A stretch of 64,000 bases of DNA from a virus (lineage: Duplodnaviria > Caudoviricetes): IMG/VR virus record IMGVR_UViG_3300028735_000004, positions 128,001 through 192,000 of that record, one strand, 5' to 3'. Both the position numbers and the translations under genes were made by a program. Under the pieces are notes generated by a model. The model was not told the DNA's origin. It did not search any database and worked only from the letters and a program-made list of their open reading frames with translations. Every line of letters begins with the position of its first letter. Position 1 is the stretch's first letter. Below, one piece after another: positions 2,888-34,989 of this stretch.

Positions 2888-3772
2888 TTATCCTATTGAT
2901 TGATAAAACATTATTATTTTATTTATAAAAAGTATATATTTTTTAAATATTTTATCTCGTTGTTCTTTATTATCAGTATCAATATCAAAATATTCTCGAT
3001 TTAATAATTCGTTTTCTTCTTTAAAATAATCAATATTGTTTTTAATTAATGAATAAAATTGTCGTATTTTATTTAATTGTTTTGAATGTTTAGCGTTATC
3101 TAACATCTCATATATGTAATGTATAAATGCATCTAAAACATCTGAAACCTTTATGGGATGAAATTTAAATTGTAAATCAAGCGTATCAAAAGGTTCAGAA
3201 CTATTTAAGGCTTTTTTTAATTCATCTATATATTTATAACAATAATTAATACTTGAAAGCATATCTTTTTTTAATCTGATTTTAGCTAATTCAAAATCTT
3301 TTTCAGATTCAGAATAATATCTTTTATCATTTCTAATTTTAGTAGTCCAATCTTTAAAGCTATGAATATCTCCGCTTTCAGTTAAAATATCTTCTACTTC
3401 TTTATAAACATCAATTGGATCAATAAGTTCTTTTGCATCCATTAATCTTTTAATTTTATTAAATTTGCCTGGTCCAAAAGAACCGGTATGATCTTTTTCA
3501 AATACATTGATAGGTTTTAATGTATATTCAAGTCGTTCTCTGGCGTGTCTTAATTCATTTAAAACCGCTCTAACCCCATACCTGACCAAATCGTCAAGTC
3601 CCTCGGTAGCGGCTTTTAATGCTTTATAATCAACAATTCCTGAAGTATGATATATTTCTGTAGGTATTGCTAAACTTGGAATAATGCTATACATTATTCT
3701 TTTAGCCATCTCGTGCTTAATATCAGCATCACAAAATTTAAAATAATTATCTATATTATAAAATAAATTCAC
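2888..3772 (-). CDS. Hypothetical protein, paralog of 33734-34989
   Basis: Shares KHExAKRIMYSIIPSLA and DPxDVYKExExxLTESGDIHxFKDWTTKIR blocks with the + strand copy. Confidence 0.75.
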   Translation of the reverse strand: MNLFYNIDNYFKFCDADIKHEMAKRIMYSIIPSLAIPTEIYHTSGIVDYKALKAATEGLDDLVRYGVRAVLNELRHARERLEYTLKPINVFEKDHTGSFGPGKFNKIKRLMDAKELIDPIDVYKEVEDILTESGDIHSFKDWTTKIRNDKRYYSESEKDFELAKIRLKKDMLSSINYCYKYIDELKKALNSSEPFDTLDLQFKFHPIKVSDVLDAFIHYIYEMLDNAKHSKQLNKIRQFYSLIKNNIDYFKEENELLNREYFDIDTDNKEQRDKIFKKYILFINKIIMFYQSIG

Positions 3773-5797: not shown

Positions 5798-6193
5798 ATG
5801 TATGGTAAAAAATCAAAAGAAGAGTTGTGGGTAAGTAATATATCTAATACAGATGTTAGTTTATCTGATTTAGGTATTACTATTCAAAAATACACAACCG
5901 TTGATTTATTTAATTTTAAAAAATATCCTTTTTTAAATAAACAATTAGTTATCCAATCTATCCAAACCGGCTCAATCTCAAAAAGACCAAATAAATTAAT
6001 CATTAGACTATTACCTCCAGAAAAGAAAAAAATAAAAAATTTACCAGTAAGTGATAAACCTTTAACCGGCTCATTATATCAAAAAAATGCCGTTAAAGTC
6101 GATAAAGAAGTGTTTGAAGAATTAGATTTGCCAGATGAAGTTTATGCAGAAGAAAACGCAGATTTTGCCGAATTTGATAGGAACAAGAAATGA
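5798..6193 (+). CDS. Hypothetical protein
   Basis: 131-aa ORF, first of a three-gene + strand cluster. Confidence 0.75.
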   Translation: MYGKKSKEELWVSNISNTDVSLSDLGITIQKYTTVDLFNFKKYPFLNKQLVIQSIQTGSISKRPNKLIIRLLPPEKKKIKNLPVSDKPLTGSLYQKNAVKVDKEVFEELDLPDEVYAEENADFAEFDRNKK

Positions 6194-6321
6194 AACAACA
6201 AGTAAAAACCGTTAAAAATGTTGAAGAAAAAGATTTACTTCAAGAATATGATGAGTTAGATAAAAAAATAGAAGAAACAATTAAAAAAATAAAAAGTAAA
6301 AAAATAAAAGCAGTAAAATAA
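6190..6321 (+). CDS. Small coiled-coil protein (43 aa, not in ORF track)
   Basis: ATGA overlap with upstream stop; MKQQVKTVKNVEEKDLLQEYDELDKKIEETIKKIKSKKIKAVK. Confidence 0.6.
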   Translation: MKQQVKTVKNVEEKDLLQEYDELDKKIEETIKKIKSKKIKAVK

Positions 6322-6330
6322 AGGTTTAAG

Positions 6331-6789
6331 ATGACCGACAAAAAAGATACCGGAATAACATCTTCCGAATTGCAATATATTTTAGATATTAATAAAAAAG
6401 CAATAGAGATCTATATTGAGGTCGAAAAACAAAATGAAGAAGTGTTGCATAATATCAATGAATTTAAAGAAAAAGTAGAAAATATTACTTTAAATTTAAG
6501 TGATTTAAATCATATTAATGACAAGATAGAAGATAAAATAGAGTTAAATAATAAAAAAATACAAGAAAATGAAGAAAAAATATTAAAAGAATTAGAGGAA
6601 TTTAAAAAAACTACTGTTGAAACTTTAGATAAATTAGATAAAAGTGTATCTGGTATTAAAACAGATACACAAAAACAATTACAAGATTTAGATAAGAATT
6701 TTTTTAGATTACTTATTGTACTTGGAACTATCGGTGGTGGAACTATCCTAACTATAATAAAACAAGTTATAGATATTATTAAACATTAA
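6331..6789 (+). CDS. Coiled-coil protein with C-terminal TM helix (holin-like candidate)
   Basis: Heptad-rich body; hydrophobic FFRLLIVLGTIGGGTILTII near the C-terminus. Confidence 0.45.
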   Translation: MTDKKDTGITSSELQYILDINKKAIEIYIEVEKQNEEVLHNINEFKEKVENITLNLSDLNHINDKIEDKIELNNKKIQENEEKILKELEEFKKTTVETLDKLDKSVSGIKTDTQKQLQDLDKNFFRLLIVLGTIGGGTILTIIKQVIDIIKH

Positions 6790-6800
6790 TTATTTAAATA

Positions 6801-8711
6801 TTAAGTGGCTATAATTTTGGCTGCCATTAACTTAGCTAATAAATTATTAAAATCAGATTTTAAACTATTTAAGTCAACAGCTGTAGAATCAGATTGACTT
6901 TACCCCATAGCAGGCAATGGTTCTAAGAAATTAAGGCTGTATCCCAACACTCCCATAATCCACCATTATCTGAAACTGTGTTTCCTACCACAGTAGGCCA
7001 AGTGGGTTCAATTAATCCGGTGGTTATTTCTTGTTTAGATCTATAAATATAACCATTTGGAGTAGTAGGAATAATGACACTTCCTGTTAAATATGAAATA
7101 GATGCCGTCCAAGTTGTAGGTCTTCCCCCAAGCCCAAGGAATACCTCCTGGCCTAACAACTCTCCATCCCCAATTCAAAATAATCAACCGCTCCGCCCTC
7201 TTGCGTTTTGAATTTTCTAAGAGCAACTGATGCCACTTGTGTCTCTGCTCCTAATTGGATTGGATATTGTGATGGTTATGGTGTTATTACAGTAAATCCA
7301 AAATTAAAAAATGAATTTGAGGTAATTGATTTTGGTTTTATAGCAAATGGATTAGATCAATATGCTCAACAAAATAGTTTTGCGTTAAATACAGTTATGC
7401 AAAAAGTATCTTCTGGTGATATAATTAAATTATCAAGTGGTACGGCAAAAATATCTTCTCAATGGTTGATTGATAAAGGTGTTATAATTGAAGGCTCTGG
7501 CGGATTCGTAGGCAGTACATTAATAGCGATGAGTAATGCTAGTGATTATGGTATAATTATAGATTCAGAGACAATTAAATCTATTATATTATTTATTGGA
7601 GCATATACAGGAGATTATTGTGGATTACCTAATGCTGAAGTCGATTGGGCCAGAATTTCTGATGTACAAGTGCAATCTGGATCTTATCGATCTGGAAATT
7701 TAATTGATGGTATTGCCGTTTTTGGTCATGGTATTAAAATAGATAAATGTCATGTTTACTCTATGGCTCAACACGGAATCAGAGTTGAAGGTCCAGTAAA
7801 TGCTAATGCAAATAATTGTGTTGTATCTGATTGTAGAGTTGCAAATTGTGGTGGAGATGGTATTAGAGTTGGTGGGTATGACGGTAATGCTTGTATTATT
7901 GAAAAATGTGATTGCACAAATAATGGAAATGCTCAATATAGGGATTTTTCTTTTTTAGGAAATACATTTATATCTTGCCACGCCGATGCTGCAACAGGGG
8001 AGTGGGGATATTATGCAAATAGATACGGCTCACCAACAACTTCTGTTTATATAGGATGTTATTCAGAAGCAAATGCGCCAAGTTATTTCTATGGAAGCAT
8101 AGCTATTAGGGGTGGGGCTATAGGAAATGTAACAAGAAACAGTATTTTTGTTGGAGAAACTTATGGTAGAGGTGGATATATGGTATCTAGACCTCAAACT
8201 TTTTCTTCAGATTTTTTAAATAAACAAGAATTATGGAGAAATCATACATATAGCACCAATGATATTATAGGTTATAATGGGTATATATATACTGTTACAG
8301 CCGGTGGTAAAACAGCTGATGTTCAACATAATTTACCAGTAATTAATGGTCAAACAGTTGTTGATGGAACTGCTACTTTAAGATGTGATGGCGCTAATAC
8401 TACGGAAAGAGATCCTACAATTGTTCATGTAGGAGGTATACCAGGTACAGAAAGAATAGGCGTGTTAGCTTTCGCAGGTACTCCTGAACTATTTGAACCT
8501 ACGGCACAAGCATATACATCACCAAGATTAAATGATGATTTAGGTATAATTTCACCAGTAAAATAAACATCTATATTATTTGACGAAGTACTTGGATAAG
8601 AATAAGTATCTGATGACGGATTTATTATAATAAATTAAATTCTTTATTTCTTAAATTTGTAGTAGCTGCAATTAACTGATTATTATTAACTCTAAAAATT
8701 TTTGCCGACAT
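6801..8711 (-). pseudogene. Beta-helix tail spike/fibre gene disrupted by an internal inversion (7222-8470), frameshifts and an in-frame TAA
   Basis: Starts at a TAATG overlap at 8711 (MSAKIFRV). Re-inverting 7222-8470 gives in-frame SSGVPAK|ATDATCVSAPNW and GVLA|LRKFKTQEGG. Distal pieces GWRVVRPGG, TTWTASISY...NGYIY...WEC and SQSDSTAVDLNSLKSDFNNLLAKL lie in different frames. Confidence 0.8.
7208..8566 (+). other. Apparent 452-aa pectate-lyase-like beta-helix ORF; actually the inverted middle of the 6801-8711 gene
   Basis: TTG start with no clear RBS; residues beyond 8470 are the antisense of the true N-terminus; paralogous to 8711-10891. Confidence 0.75.
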
Positions 8712-10891
8712 TATTCAATCCTTATAGCATTAGTGCCATCACTTATAATTTGATATGCTTTACTTCCTGGAACAACTACCCCTGTATCGCCAACAGAAGC
8801 TTTAATTGTAGCAGGATATCCGGTATTATTCCAAAAAACTCTTGTCCAACCATTAACTCCAAATTGCGCTACAACAATAAAAGATGCAACTGGAGAGCCG
8901 GTTAGTTTAATTCTATCATTATTCATCTGATAATCATTTAATGTAATAGTTCCTCCAGCGGTGCAATTTACTGATACAATACCAGAAGATTGTAAGGGTT
9001 CTAGTGCCCACTGATTGGCCGGAACATCTAAATCTAATAAACAACTCCAAGTTAAATGATTATCTACGGTATTATATCCAACAGATGTTCCCCAAGATGG
9101 TTCAGAAGCTCCACTAATTCTGCTAAAAGAATTATCTGGTGCTCCGCTTTCATATCCAGCTAATCTGTAAACATAACCATTTGCTACGGTGGGTTTTATT
9201 AATGTACCTATTGCATAGTGAGTATTTGCTGACCAAGTAGTTGCTAATGCTGCTCTTCCACAAGCGATTTTAACAGTCCATCCTGGCCCACCAGATCTTT
9301 GATAAGGAGATCCTGATTGAGCTCCATTTAATATTAAATCTCCTGGACGATACCAATTGAAGTATCCGGCACGACCAGTAAATGGAGTATCTTGAACTAC
9401 TTGTGCTATTCTTCGCTCATCACCATATGAACCGTGCCAAACATCAGATAACATAATTTGGCCTGGTGCCGGACCAGATTCATATCCGGTTAACCAATAG
9501 CCAAATGTTTGAACACCTCCAGCTAAACCTACCAACCATCTTTCTGTTACACCTGTATATGCGCTTTTTTTAGCCATCCAATAAGGAGGTGTTGCTCCAG
9601 AAGGTTTTTGCCATCCAAGAGACCATCCTTCAGAAGTACCACCTCCTATCGTATGAAAAACCTCTACTGGTTGAGTATAAGTTCCTTCACATCTCCAAAC
9701 TAATCCTTCATATTCTGATACTGTTTGACCAACTACTGTAGGCCATACAGGAGGTAATTCTCCACCGGGATGATATGTTCCATAAGTTCTTCCTGAACTT
9801 AAAGCTTTATAATAATATCCATTATTTGGTTGATAATAATCATTTTGTGCAATAAAAATTCCGTACCCTGCACCTTGTCCAGGATAACCTCTTACTGATG
9901 AATATCTATTTCTAACACTTAATGAAGATGGCCCTGCACTTGCTGGTGCAAAACCCCAAAACGAAGAATCATTATGAATATAAGCTAAATCACCACCAAC
10001 AACTGCTATATTACCTTTAAATATAGATGGTGCATCCTGTTCGGCATAACATCCAAAAAATGAAGAAAATGTAGGAGAAGATATTCGATCACAATCATAA
10101 TTTAATCTTCTATTAGCGGAAGTATGACATCCTACCCATGTACATCCCAAAAAAGAATGATCATAAATGCCAGTATCCCAATTACCAGATGCGTCTATAT
10201 TTATTCCAAGGCATACATTAGAGTCATCTCCTATTAAAGTAATACCATTTCTGCCATTATTACTTAAAACAAGATCTCTAAATTGAGTATTATTTCCATT
10301 TACCTGTGGAGTAAATGTTGGAGGATAACTTGCATATAAGATGATACCATCTCTTGGAAAACCTAATACATGTATTTCTCTAAAAATGGAGCCGTGAGAC
10401 ATAACCCTGATTCCATCCATATTTGCAGGTCCGCCGGGAAAAGTAGGACCTCCGTTTGATTGGCTGTTTTTAAGAAAAAATCCTTCAACCACACACCAAT
10501 CAGCTTTACCTCTTGCAGGGCTCATTGCTTGTCCGATCCAATATCCTGTTACGGCTATAGCGCAATATACAGTTTCTCCACCAACTGTGGGAATGCCGGT
10601 CGCTGTAGTTAAATTAAAATTACCAGTTGCAGTGTCAGCAGTAATAGTGGTATTGCCGTTTGCGAAGCCGGCTCCCCTAAATGTAATACTTTTTGATATA
10701 ACAATTGGTCTTGTTATTCGATAATTTCCGGGAGGTAAAAATACAATCGCCCCATCATTTAAAGGATCATTTGAGTGTGGATTTACTACGGCATCAATTG
10801 CCGCTTGAATAGCATATCCATCATCATTAATTCCGTCGCCTTTTGCACCGAAATCTCTTACATCATAAGTTGGAATTTTTACATAGGATAT
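8711..10891 (-). CDS. Tail spike/fibre with pectate_lyase_3-type right-handed beta-helix and carbohydrate-binding-like modules; ATA start
   Basis: Frame open 366 nt upstream of the track start: (M)SYVKIPTYDVRDFGAKGDGINDD..AIQAAID..VFLPPGNYRI. AGGT RBS-like site precedes ATA at 10891. Confidence 0.8.
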   Translation of the reverse strand: MSYVKIPTYDVRDFGAKGDGINDDGYAIQAAIDAVVNPHSNDPLNDGAIVFLPPGNYRITRPIVISKSITFRGAGFANGNTTITADTATGNFNLTTATGIPTVGGETVYCAIAVTGYWIGQAMSPARGKADWCVVEGFFLKNSQSNGGPTFPGGPANMDGIRVMSHGSIFREIHVLGFPRDGIILYASYPPTFTPQVNGNNTQFRDLVLSNNGRNGITLIGDDSNVCLGINIDASGNWDTGIYDHSFLGCTWVGCHTSANRRLNYDCDRISSPTFSSFFGCYAEQDAPSIFKGNIAVVGGDLAYIHNDSSFWGFAPASAGPSSLSVRNRYSSVRGYPGQGAGYGIFIAQNDYYQPNNGYYYKALSSGRTYGTYHPGGELPPVWPTVVGQTVSEYEGLVWRCEGTYTQPVEVFHTIGGGTSEGWSLGWQKPSGATPPYWMAKKSAYTGVTERWLVGLAGGVQTFGYWLTGYESGPAPGQIMLSDVWHGSYGDERRIAQVVQDTPFTGRAGYFNWYRPGDLILNGAQSGSPYQRSGGPGWTVKIACGRAALATTWSANTHYAIGTLIKPTVANGYVYRLAGYESGAPDNSFSRISGASEPSWGTSVGYNTVDNHLTWSCLLDLDVPANQWALEPLQSSGIVSVNCTAGGTITLNDYQMNNDRIKLTGSPVASFIVVAQFGVNGWTRVFWNNTGYPATIKASVGDTGVVVPGSKAYQIISDGTNAIRIE

Positions 10892-10928
10892 TATTTACCT
10901 AAAATAATATCCTTTTATTAATAAAATA

Positions 10929-11147
10929 TTATTTAATAATTTTTACATTAATGGCTTTAGGATCGCCTTTTATATTTTGGCCGACCTCAAATTCAACTTC
11001 CGCATCTTTTGGTACAGTTTTAAAACCATCAACTAAAATATCTGAATAATGCAAAAATATATCTTTTTGTTGCTTGCCTTCTTGTTCCCAAGAAATAAAA
11101 CCATAACCTTTTTTATTATTAAACCAACAAACTTTACCTTTAAACAT
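10929..11147 (-). CDS. csp: Cold-shock domain protein
   Basis: KGKVCWFNNKKGYGFI (RNP1) and DIFLHYSDI (RNP2). Confidence 0.92.
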   Translation of the reverse strand: MFKGKVCWFNNKKGYGFISWEQEGKQQKDIFLHYSDILVDGFKTVPKDAEVEFEVGQNIKGDPKAINVKIIK

Positions 11148-33719: not shown

Positions 33720-33733
33720 ATTTATATGCTTAA

Positions 33734-34989
33734 ATATGTAATGCTGGTATTAAGCACGAGATAGCTAAAAGAATAATGTATAGCATTATTCCAAGTTTAG
33801 CAACAACTACCGAAATGTACTTTATCTCTGGAATTGTAGATTATAAAGCGTTAAGAGCTGTGAATTAATTAAATACGGCATTAGAGCAATTTCTAACGAA
33901 TTAGAACATTTTGTTATAACTAAACAATTTAAAGAACCTAAAAATAAAAATTTATATAATGAAACCCAATTATACAAAGAAACAAATATTTTAAAATTTT
34001 TAGAAAATGCTATCAAAATTTTTAATATAAATTGGACCGGTGAAAGAGGTGGTGCCAATTATTCAATGGATATGTTTGGTGGAGAACCTTGGGCAGAAAT
34101 TAGTAAAAGTTTATTTAAAATAGCCAAATTGAATATTGAAGCTAAAAAAATTAAAAAACAACAAAATATGAAACAAGAAATGAACATCTTGCAACAATTA
34201 GTTGTAGAATTAAATATCTTTGATGGTTTAAGTCATAATACTGATAGTATATTAAAAAATATTCTTAATGAAGAATATAAAGATAAAAAAGAATATCCGG
34301 CACCAAATGATTATAAATTACTAAATGAACAAGGATTACATCAATCAAATGAATTTAAAGATTTAAAATATTTGGATTTAAAATATTTGATGGATTTAAA
34401 AGAAATAATGGATCCAGTCGATGTTTATAAAGAAATAGAAAAAACTCTCACTGAAAGTGGAGATATTCATCGTTTTAAAGATTGGACTACTAAAATAAGA
34501 CAACATCCAAAATATCGCGAAAAATCTGATATTGGATATGAATTATTTCTTATTAAGTATCGTAAAGAATTTTTATATTATATTAAGCAGATTAATATGG
34601 CGATAGACTATATAGATGATGTTATTAATTTAATTAAAGATACTGATGAAATTCAAAGTAATGAAAAAGCAATTAATTTAGCAATTCAAAAAGCATCTGT
34701 AATATTTTATCCAACAATTTTTAGATATAGAAAAGATATTGTAGATGAAGTTATACCAAGAACATCAAATCCTAATAAAATTTATGATTTGTTAAAAAAG
34801 ATGGATTTACTTGCTTACGATGAAATGAAAAATAAAGACTCAATTATAAATCAAATATTTAGAAGCCATTCTTTAAGTCCATTTGAATTTAAAACAAAAC
34901 CAAATATTTTAATCCAAGGTCTGATTAATGATTTGGAAAAATTAAAGAGACATTTACAAAAAGTGTCAAATTATTTACAATCTGTGTAA
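33734..34989 (+). pseudogene. Truncated, frameshifted paralog of 2888-3772
   Basis: ICNAGIKHEIAKRIMYSIIPSLA...KALRAV then an out-of-frame join near 33861 to ELIKYGIRAISNEL, continuous with track ORF 34066-34989. Confidence 0.78.

Follow-up and report, generated by a model that had tools for sequence, protein, structure and literature searches.

The stretch of DNA analysed here (the window, 64,000 nt) corresponds to positions 128,001 to 192,000 of the IMG/VR record IMGVR_UViG_3300028735_000004. It lies on a contig of 243 kb (ENA ERZ27247594, k141_354500), which comes from an uncultured giant phage with AT-rich DNA. Nearly all genes are carried by the minus strand. The region considered, 6801–8711, contains a plus-strand open reading frame (ORF) at 7208..8566, for which gene callers give a 452-aa protein with a TTG start codon and a match to the Pfam family Beta_helix (E 3.8e-7); minus-strand gene fragments lie on both sides of this ORF. 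Probably, the whole region represents one dead minus-strand fibre- or tailspike-like gene, the middle of which was flipped by a one-off inversion that did not depend on repeats.

The translation start of the minus-strand gene (8709..8723) comprises AAGGA at 8723–8719 and, 7 nt downstream of it, an ATG at 8711–8709 that overlaps the TAA of the upstream gene (TAATG). From this ATG, the minus frame reads MSAKIFRVNNNQLIAATTNLRNKEFNLL, followed by two stop codons. This is the first piece of the N-terminal module (8637..8711, minus strand; MSAKIFRVNNNQLIAATTNLRNKEFN), whose frame ends with TAA TAA and in which IAATTNL..KEF matches IAAATTNLTTVKF of the homologous database protein P0036 and ATTNLTSTKF of P0159. 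The second piece of the module (8476..8634, minus strand; ..IDVYFTGEIIPKSSFNLGDVYACAVGSNSSGVP) lies in a second minus frame of the right flank, which reads ..NPSSDTYSYPSTSSNNIDVYFTGEIIPKSSFNLGDVYACAVGSNSSGVPAK; it is matched by P0159 on the minus strand with 55% identity (E 3e-7) and occupies positions 71–107 of the hidden Markov model (HMM) of the family.

The inverted segment (7217..8475, now on the plus strand, 1,249–1,259 bp) contains the neck (LRATDATCVSAPNWIGYCDGYG), a right-handed beta-helix and the first NGYIY..RCDG unit. The presence of the beta-helix body is indicated by Pfam Beta_helix, the family HMM (155.7 bits), AlphaFold2 and Foldseek. In the AlphaFold2 model of the plus-strand ORF, the beta-helix (residues ~50–310) is confident, and the predicted local distance difference test (pLDDT) score is <50 for residues 1–30 and 400–452. 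A Foldseek search with the flipped part revealed phage tailspikes and polysaccharide lyases/epimerases with E-values of 1e-6 to 1e-4; the fold matches include the Sf6 and Det7 tailspikes, K2-2 TSP, RbmB and AlgE4, at 10–16% identity and template modelling (TM) scores of ~0.3–0.4.

The left flank is the C-terminal relic (6801..7216, minus strand), which is spread over three frames, A, B and C, and ends at the stop codon TAA 6803–6801. Frame A comes first (..KFKTQEGGA), then frame B at 7172–7137 (WGWRVVRPGGIP), frame C at 7126–6944 (GRPTTW..PNGYIYRS..EPTWPTVVGNTVSDNGGLWECW), and frame B again at 6944–6804 (GYSLNFLEPLPAMG, a stop codon and SQSDSTAVDLNSLKSDFNNLLAKLMAAKIIAT). Written out, the minus frames to the left of the plus-strand ORF are LRKFKTQEGGAVDYF.., ..NWGWRVVRPGGIP.., ..GRPTTWTASISYLTGSVIIPTTPNGYIYRS..EPTWPTVVGNTVSDNGGLWECW.. 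and ..LEPLPAMG-stop-SQSDSTAVDLNSLKSDFNNLLAKLMAAKIIAT-stop. The C-terminal region and the DFNxLLAKL tail at 7216–6804 are recognised by tblastn on the minus strand with E-values of 1e-9 to 1e-15 and are collinear with the other parts in the flipped arrangement only. E-values for the C-terminal flank are 8e-11 against the upstream paralog and 1e-13 to 1e-15 against P0006 and P0032. No relatives of the flank peptides other than this paralog were found in the window.

In the homologs, the N-terminal module ends with ..VDVQ..G..GLG.G..CAVGLNSSGELIRATDPTCVSAPNWIGDCD.. and is followed by the beta-helix, two NGY..W..C units, a conserved region and the tail ..LEPLPQRADAHADS....DFNALLAKLRAAGVI. Turning the plus-strand ORF round between its flanks gives exactly this order, and only after flipping is the N-module (..CAVG.NSSG...R-ATD.TCVSAPNW) joined directly to the body. 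In its domain order, the rebuilt gene agrees with the right-handed parallel beta-helix proteins annotated as "glycosyl hydrolase family 28-related" (P0004–P0007, P0032–P0034 and P0008–P0014), which have an N-terminal adaptor module and a DFNALLAKL tail; it is 27–46% identical to them. It shares with P0004–P0014 and P0032–P0034 the motifs ..CAVG.NSSG.P[VI]RATD.TCVSAPNWIG.CD.., the beta-helix, NGY..W..C, WRVVRPGGIP and LEPLP..ADSTA..DFNxLLAKL. The names of these proteins are automatic annotations. The copy in the window differs from them in that the middle of the gene has been turned round, the frame is shifted four times and interrupted by one nonsense codon, and ~90 aa are missing.

Evidence for the inversion at the two joints

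An earlier note on this DNA, made from its sequence alone, had claimed that flipping 7222–8470 rebuilds a minus-strand paralog of 8711–10891 with a TAATG start and a DSTA..L..DFN.LLAKL fibre-type tail, and the collinearity with intact homologs described above bears this out, the tail being of the DFNNLLAKL type. The note had also stated that reading is in frame at both joints. The frames do read as quoted; however, as evidence this is weak by itself, because it only needs both flanks to be in one frame, which has a 1 in 3 chance, and a suitable remainder for the sum of the break-point coordinates, which can be picked at will. The test was therefore taken from homologs.

On the present DNA, P0159 gives two separate high-scoring segment pairs (HSPs), one with its residues 74–118 at 7217–7351 on the plus strand (68.6 bits) and one with residues 36–72 at 8592–8479 on the minus strand (E 3e-7). 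On the flipped DNA, there is a single HSP of residues 36–118, with 57% identity over 84 aa, 100 bits and E 6e-28. The main tblastn HSPs of P0004, P0005, P0007 and P0033 also cross the right joint after flipping, with a gain of 10–13 bits. The score of the family HMM increases from 155.7 bits (profile positions 104–530, present plus strand) to 171.0 bits (profile positions 71–529, flipped minus strand). Along the present DNA, profile positions 71–107 are found on the minus strand at 8583–8461, positions 104–530 on the plus strand at 7220–8338, and positions 706–779 and 789–830 again on the minus strand, at 7135–6944 and 6932–6807, respectively. The alignment of the rebuilt protein to intact homologs, which had been proposed as a check, thus produced one HSP across the right joint (E 6e-28) and 15 additional bits in the HMM score. 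Because the HSPs of P0159 and of the P0004 type fuse and the HMM score rises on the flipped DNA, the right joint can be regarded, as far as sequence comparison goes, as proven at residue resolution.

For the left joint, the closest homolog of the body, P0032 (46% identical, partial), was compared with the rebuilt C-terminal part, in which an X was placed at each break. The local alignment runs from VHVGGIPGTERIGVLA (VHVGG..RIGVLA) over the joint to the last residue. WRVVRPGGIP is identical in both, and RIGVLA followed by 11 aa and GGA corresponds to RIAVAY..GGV with the spacing kept. Further on, WAWRVVRPGGIP of P0032 corresponds to WGWRVVRPGGIP of the window (7172–7137), and its ..WECWGYTTDFLEPLPSRAAAQADSTA..DFNALLAKLRAANVLA corresponds to ..WECW/GYSLNFLEPLPAMG-stop-SQSDSTA..DFNNLLAKLMAAKIIAT.

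Both break points can be located to ~6 nt, the right one within 8470..8476 and the left one within 7216..7222. In 18 homologs, the sequence at the right joint is NSS-G-x-[P/A/L]-[V/I]-R-ATD, for example, with GVPVR in P0128 and P0162. The outer joint, in which GVP of the minus flank is followed by LR encoded by the plus strand (7217–7222), gives GVPLR-ATD, whereas the joint of the earlier note (8470/8471) would produce GVPAK-ATD, in which the invariant R is replaced by K. At the other joint, AA of P0032 is to be compared with FA for the outer joint and with LR for the joint of the earlier note. Given that the homologs keep R before ATD and that AA of P0032 resembles FA, the break points most likely lie at 7216/7217 and 8475/8476 (with an uncertainty of ~6 nt). 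The inversion claimed at 7222–8470 is real, and its joints are probably to be moved outwards by 5 nt, which leaves a microhomology of no more than 1–3 nt.

The AGC/GCT pair, previously taken as a microhomology that bounds the inversion, proved to be no better than chance when diagonals were compared. On the antidiagonal that keeps the frame (coordinate sum 15692), AGC/GCT (3 nt) and the single base pair 7216/8476 are the only complementarity, and runs of 2–4 nt occur on neighbouring diagonals. No inverted repeats were found at or near the joints in a repeat search, complementarity being ≤3–4 nt on any diagonal. Pfam hits to resolvases or integrases were absent from the genes called within about 10 kb on either side, the rest of the 243-kb genome not having been searched, and a PHROGs search of the neighbouring genes gave no match. 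Over 14.9 kb, both joints included, the MEGAHIT contig deposited in ENA (k141, 243 kb) shows 100% identity with a Logan contig (22 kb, SRR8554436), and the latter is unbranched through both joints.

Decay of the gene and the ends of the plus-strand ORF

Even in the rebuilt orientation, the gene is interrupted by four frameshifts and a TAA. The lesions were placed using P0036 and P0159 for the N-module and P0032 and P0034 for the C-terminal part. At the first one (8634..8640, minus strand), an A/T run is 1 nt too short, which shifts the frame between KEFN and IIINPSS. At the second one (~7175..7190, minus strand), frame A passes to frame B, and ~12 or more residues are missing in comparison with P0032 and P0034. 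The third one (~7117..7127, minus strand) is a passage from frame B to frame C in or beside a run of five G. A single shift from A to C at 7120–7190 was considered instead and rejected, since WAWRVVRPGGIP of P0032 shows that frame B was used. At the fourth lesion (6944..6947, minus strand), frame C returns to frame B after WECW; P0032 has WECWGY here, and the window is short of one G. The fifth one is the in-frame TAA at 6900..6902 (minus strand) in LEPLPAMG-stop-SQSDSTA, where the homologs have LEPLPSRAAAQADSTA. In the inverted segment itself, ~90 aa have been lost in frame at ~8400..8445 (plus strand), between the TLGG/HVGG motif and ERRIGV; these residues are present in every homolog and in the paralog. 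The lesions listed earlier (near 8635, 7170, 7140 and 6940, and TAA 6900–6902) are therefore all supported by homologs, and two internal losses are to be added. In total, the frame of the pseudogene is disrupted by one inversion, by four frameshifts and a nonsense codon, and by losses of ~90 aa and of ~12 aa or more.

The plus-strand ORF begins with MNFLRATD. Its first three codons (TTG AAT TTT) and its last ~30 codons (8476–8566), the C-terminal tail of which contains GTPELFEPTAQAYTSPR, are antisense to the flanks. The DNA that precedes TTG 7208 is rich in C and contains neither a Shine–Dalgarno sequence nor an A-rich leader; the first in-frame ATG is codon 64. A word-indexed search with this ORF returned the ORF itself, P0002 (31% identity) and practically no other proteins, and an exhaustive HMMER search of 1.84 billion representatives gave 729 hits. 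Wherever residues 4–64 of the ORF are aligned in these hits, they match the interior of the homolog, at ~85–150 in P0036, P0047, P0056, P0078, P0082, P0159, P0161–P0163 and P0177 and near position 250 in P0033 and P0128. The room before the aligned N-part of the homologs equals the roughly 81 codons of the minus flank. At the other end, query residue 422 is passed by none of the 729 alignments, so the last 30 residues are never reached. No database protein with the ends of this ORF was found in either search. Since the matches to homologs are internal and none of them reaches the last 30 residues, the ends of the ORF are accidental, and the earlier conclusion that 7208–8566 is not a stand-alone gene holds.

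The chance extensions of the ORF are unremarkable, because an antisense frame of that phase would stay open for 32 codons with a probability of ~0.2 and for 13 codons with a probability of ~0.5. In codon-usage scoring at 8440–8560, frames on both strands score as coding, which leaves the strand undecided. FAGTP in the tail of the ORF was considered as a GTP motif of the family after BLAST had extended the alignment with the paralog to 8518. It was rejected, as the closer proteins P0032 and P0034 do not contain the motif, the same bases encode NSSGVP in antisense, and the HMMER alignments stop at residue 422 or before it. The plus-strand ORF is likely a by-product, in which the old frame remained intact on the other strand and was stretched by chance to a TTG at one end (3 codons) and to a TAA at the other (~30 codons). 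Apparently, it makes no useful protein.

Possible history of the gene and alternative explanations

The ancestral gene would have encoded an N-terminal adaptor module, a pectate-lyase-type right-handed beta-helix, an NGY..W..C region and a helical DFNxLLAKL tail, and its translation would have been coupled to that of the upstream paralog. A single illegitimate recombination or template-switch event probably flipped ~1.25 kb of the interior, most likely 7217–8475, whereby the enzyme body was cut off from the start codon and N-module on one side and from the C-terminal region on the other. Deletion-biased decay would account for the small lesions of the flanks (four frameshifts and a nonsense codon), the in-frame loss of ~90 aa, and the loss of ~12 aa or more elsewhere. 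Illegitimate recombination appears to be the mechanism, and the inversion seems to have become fixed.

Judging by its motifs and fold, the ancestral protein is of the virion fibre or spike type with a pectate-lyase-like beta-helix, and its placement on the tail and on the head are both possible. Presumably, it was a polysaccharide depolymerase or binder that trimerised via its C-terminal part. The N-module, ..FNLGDGYACAVG.NSSG.PVRATD.TCVSAPNWIGYCDGYGTITV.., is common to beta-helix proteins with otherwise unrelated bodies; it is carried by P0036, P0047, P0056, P0078, P0082, P0159, P0161–P0163 and P0177, and in the window it is encoded by 8476–8711 and 7217–7300. It looks like a portable virion adaptor. 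No Pfam family matched it above the threshold, and weak matches to Phage_cement_2 were obtained for a few homologs; a capsid cement domain was not accepted, the Pfam result being inconsistent and sub-threshold. The DFNxLLAKLxAA tail (6804–6899, minus strand, in the window and the C-termini of P0006, P0032 and P0034) resembles the end of the Pfam family Phage_head_fibr (head fibre of phi29), over its last ~33 positions. The match lies below the threshold, with E-values of 1e-4 to 1e-2 in four members of the family, including the relic, and hints at a common trimerising end or at attachment to the head.

Events of this type are well documented and ordinary, and the result serves mainly to correct an annotation and does not reveal a new kind of system. 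The called 452-aa "beta-helix protein", which already forms its own cluster in protein databases, has ends made by a rearrangement. As these ends are artefacts, the operon contains one working copy of the spike/fibre family, the paralog, and not two. The locus also provides a clean natural case of a repeat-independent inversion and deletion-biased decay in a phage structural gene. Dead DNA is usually purged fast from phage genomes, and such relics are seldom preserved; the 243-kb phage evidently tolerates a dead gene of ~1.9 kb.

Several observations weigh against the gene being dead and inverted in this way. The gain in score at the left joint is just ~2 bits (P0032), and this joint rests on collinearity, spacing and weak similarity. 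Both assemblies may stem from the same reads, and a minority un-inverted form is possible. The flipped part contains no frameshift or stop in 416–420 codons, compared with five lesions in the 652 bp of the flanks. The chance that all the lesions fall in the flanks is ~0.005 for five lesions (0.014 for four), and a stop would arise from about 4.8% of the single substitutions in the flipped part. The lesion-free flipped part could mean that the plus-strand ORF is still selected. Alternatively, the skew could reflect an earlier death of the C-terminal part, the N-module and body having been used until a recent inversion. This is a simple alternative history, with four of the five lesions lying in the C-terminal part. 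The flipped part itself is devoid of ~90 conserved residues.

The absence of frameshifts and stops from ~1,250 bp of the flipped part (p ~0.005–0.014) also supports an explanation in which the inversion is real and the plus-strand ORF was kept as a working free (not virion-bound) polysaccharide-degrading beta-helix enzyme, transcribed by read-through from the plus-strand genes at 5798–6789. The ORF lies downstream of three plus-strand ORFs, no terminator-like site was found on the plus strand at 6790–7207, and the beta-helix core is modelled with confidence. However, its sole start is a TTG behind a C-rich leader with no Shine–Dalgarno sequence, the first ATG being codon 64. The enzyme would be devoid of ~90 residues present in all homologs and of the C-terminal region and tail. 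Its ends are matched by no database protein, and a 32-codon run past the joint has a probability of ~0.2 by chance. A working enzyme is therefore unlikely. Gene birth by intragenic inversion, in which the body was freed of the virion anchor and the trimerising tail and the 452-codon ORF was selected as a free enzyme, is quite unlikely. If the flipped ORF were expressed, this would be a route from a virion-bound to a soluble depolymerase.

Replacement of the body by a foreign beta-helix cassette, inserted in reverse into a minus-strand gene with a deleted body, could be imagined, given that phages exchange spike bodies and that the N-module is found with unrelated bodies. Yet the junctions are seamless at the residue level, and the spacing is exact (NSSG + 4 + ATD; RIGV + 11 + GG). 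The neck ATDATCVSAPNWIGYCDGYG, which is paired with the N-module in all homologs, sits on the flipped piece. Two precise events, an insertion and a deletion, would be required, compared with one inversion that explains everything, and a replacement is thus very unlikely.

The earlier note had offered three options: microhomology-mediated inactivation of a receptor-binding protein, the relic of a switch, and a misassembly. Inactivation by the inversion is supported, in a form that involves no repeats. A reversible invertible element responsible for phase variation of a receptor-binding protein would resemble the G segment of Mu (inverted by Gin) and the C segment of P1 (inverted by Cin), in which inversion changes the product of a fibre gene. 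The Mu and P1 segments have inverted recombination sites, are flipped reversibly by an adjacent serine invertase and yield complete fibres both ways. The window shares with them a DNA inversion that alters a phage fibre gene, which is the classic target of such switches, and the reading frame is kept at both joints; it differs in that no repeats and no invertase were found and the flanks are broken. Intragenic invertons are defined by flanking inverted repeats and site-specific recombinases, and both their states occur in one population (Chanin et al., PMC10028968). Here, the inversion also lies wholly inside a coding sequence; however, flanking inverted repeats are absent, and one orientation is seen, in two assemblies, the Logan contig being unbranched across both joints. 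With four frameshifts and a stop in the flanks, the "on" orientation would not yield a whole protein. Since there are no inverted repeats, no recombinase was detected within 10 kb on either side, and the flanks are broken, the relic of a switch is unsupported and highly improbable. An assembly artefact, with the segment truly in the minus orientation, has an equally slight probability: this is a metagenome assembly and the two contigs, 100% identical over 14.9 kb, are perhaps built from the same reads, but two different assemblers (MEGAHIT and Logan) agree, the joints contain no repeat by which a de Bruijn graph might be misled, a k = 141 contig requires reads spanning each joint, and the five further independent lesions leave the gene dead regardless.

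The upstream paralog and the genomic surroundings

The intact upstream paralog (8711..10894, minus strand) has 726 open codons, matches Pect-lyase_RHGA_epim and serves as an internal reference for the ancestral architecture. It is ~50% identical to P0004 and P0005, and its identity with the plus-strand ORF 7208–8566 is 27% (E 4e-29). Its metagenomic relatives are P0004 (901 aa), P0005 (793 aa), P0006 (656 aa) and P0007 (864 aa). The genomic ones, P0008–P0014, are about 870 aa long, originate from Streptomyces and Kitasatospora, and are labelled "glycosyl hydrolase family 28-related". The first 122 codons of the paralog contain no ATG, GTG or TTG, and the frame begins with ATA ATA right after TAA 10897–10895. 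Gene callers place its start at ATG 10525 (604 aa), and turns of the beta-helix are thereby lost; the turns cut off by this call align with P0006 from residue 1 of the latter (MNVYDFGAVGDG). This can be explained either by a non-canonical start (ATA/ATT) or by a lost start codon. Tail-spike families of PHROGs match the first beta-helix turns of the paralog only.

An 18-nt inverted repeat (16 of 18 positions) connects 8385–8402, in the plus-strand ORF (..CDGANTT..), with 8725–8742, at the 3′ end of the paralog, in its final codons (..SDGTNAI..). In 2.5 kb of DNA as AT-rich as this, chance alone would yield about one pair of this kind.

The other genes of the window include a gpA-type large terminase, a collagen-like fibre gene and a glycosylation cluster. 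A blastn search with 6700–11000 gave no nucleotide matches in phage records, and the exact 26-mer adjoining the right joint was not found in JGI metagenome contigs or in IMG/VR. IMG/VR searches with the plus-strand ORF, the paralog and two neighbouring genes returned nothing or generic matches to the DFGAKGDG motif, with no un-inverted syntenic ortholog among them.

Three small plus-strand ORFs at 5798–6789 (131, 43 and 152 aa), which point toward the relic, are the only other plus-strand block nearby. None of them has a Pfam or PHROGs match; the product of the 152-aa ORF is a coiled coil with a hydrophobic C-terminus.

A repeat of ~130 nt with ~86% identity is present at 3612–3741 (minus strand) and 33730–33858 (plus strand). 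It spans a 5′ leader and the first ~30 codons (MYSIIPSLA..GIVDYKAL..). The copy at 3612–3741 heads the ORF 2888–3772; the other copy, 30 kb away and in the opposite orientation, amounts to no more than a 30-aa ORF (33776–33868). The repeat is either another relic of a gene start or a common regulatory or leader module.

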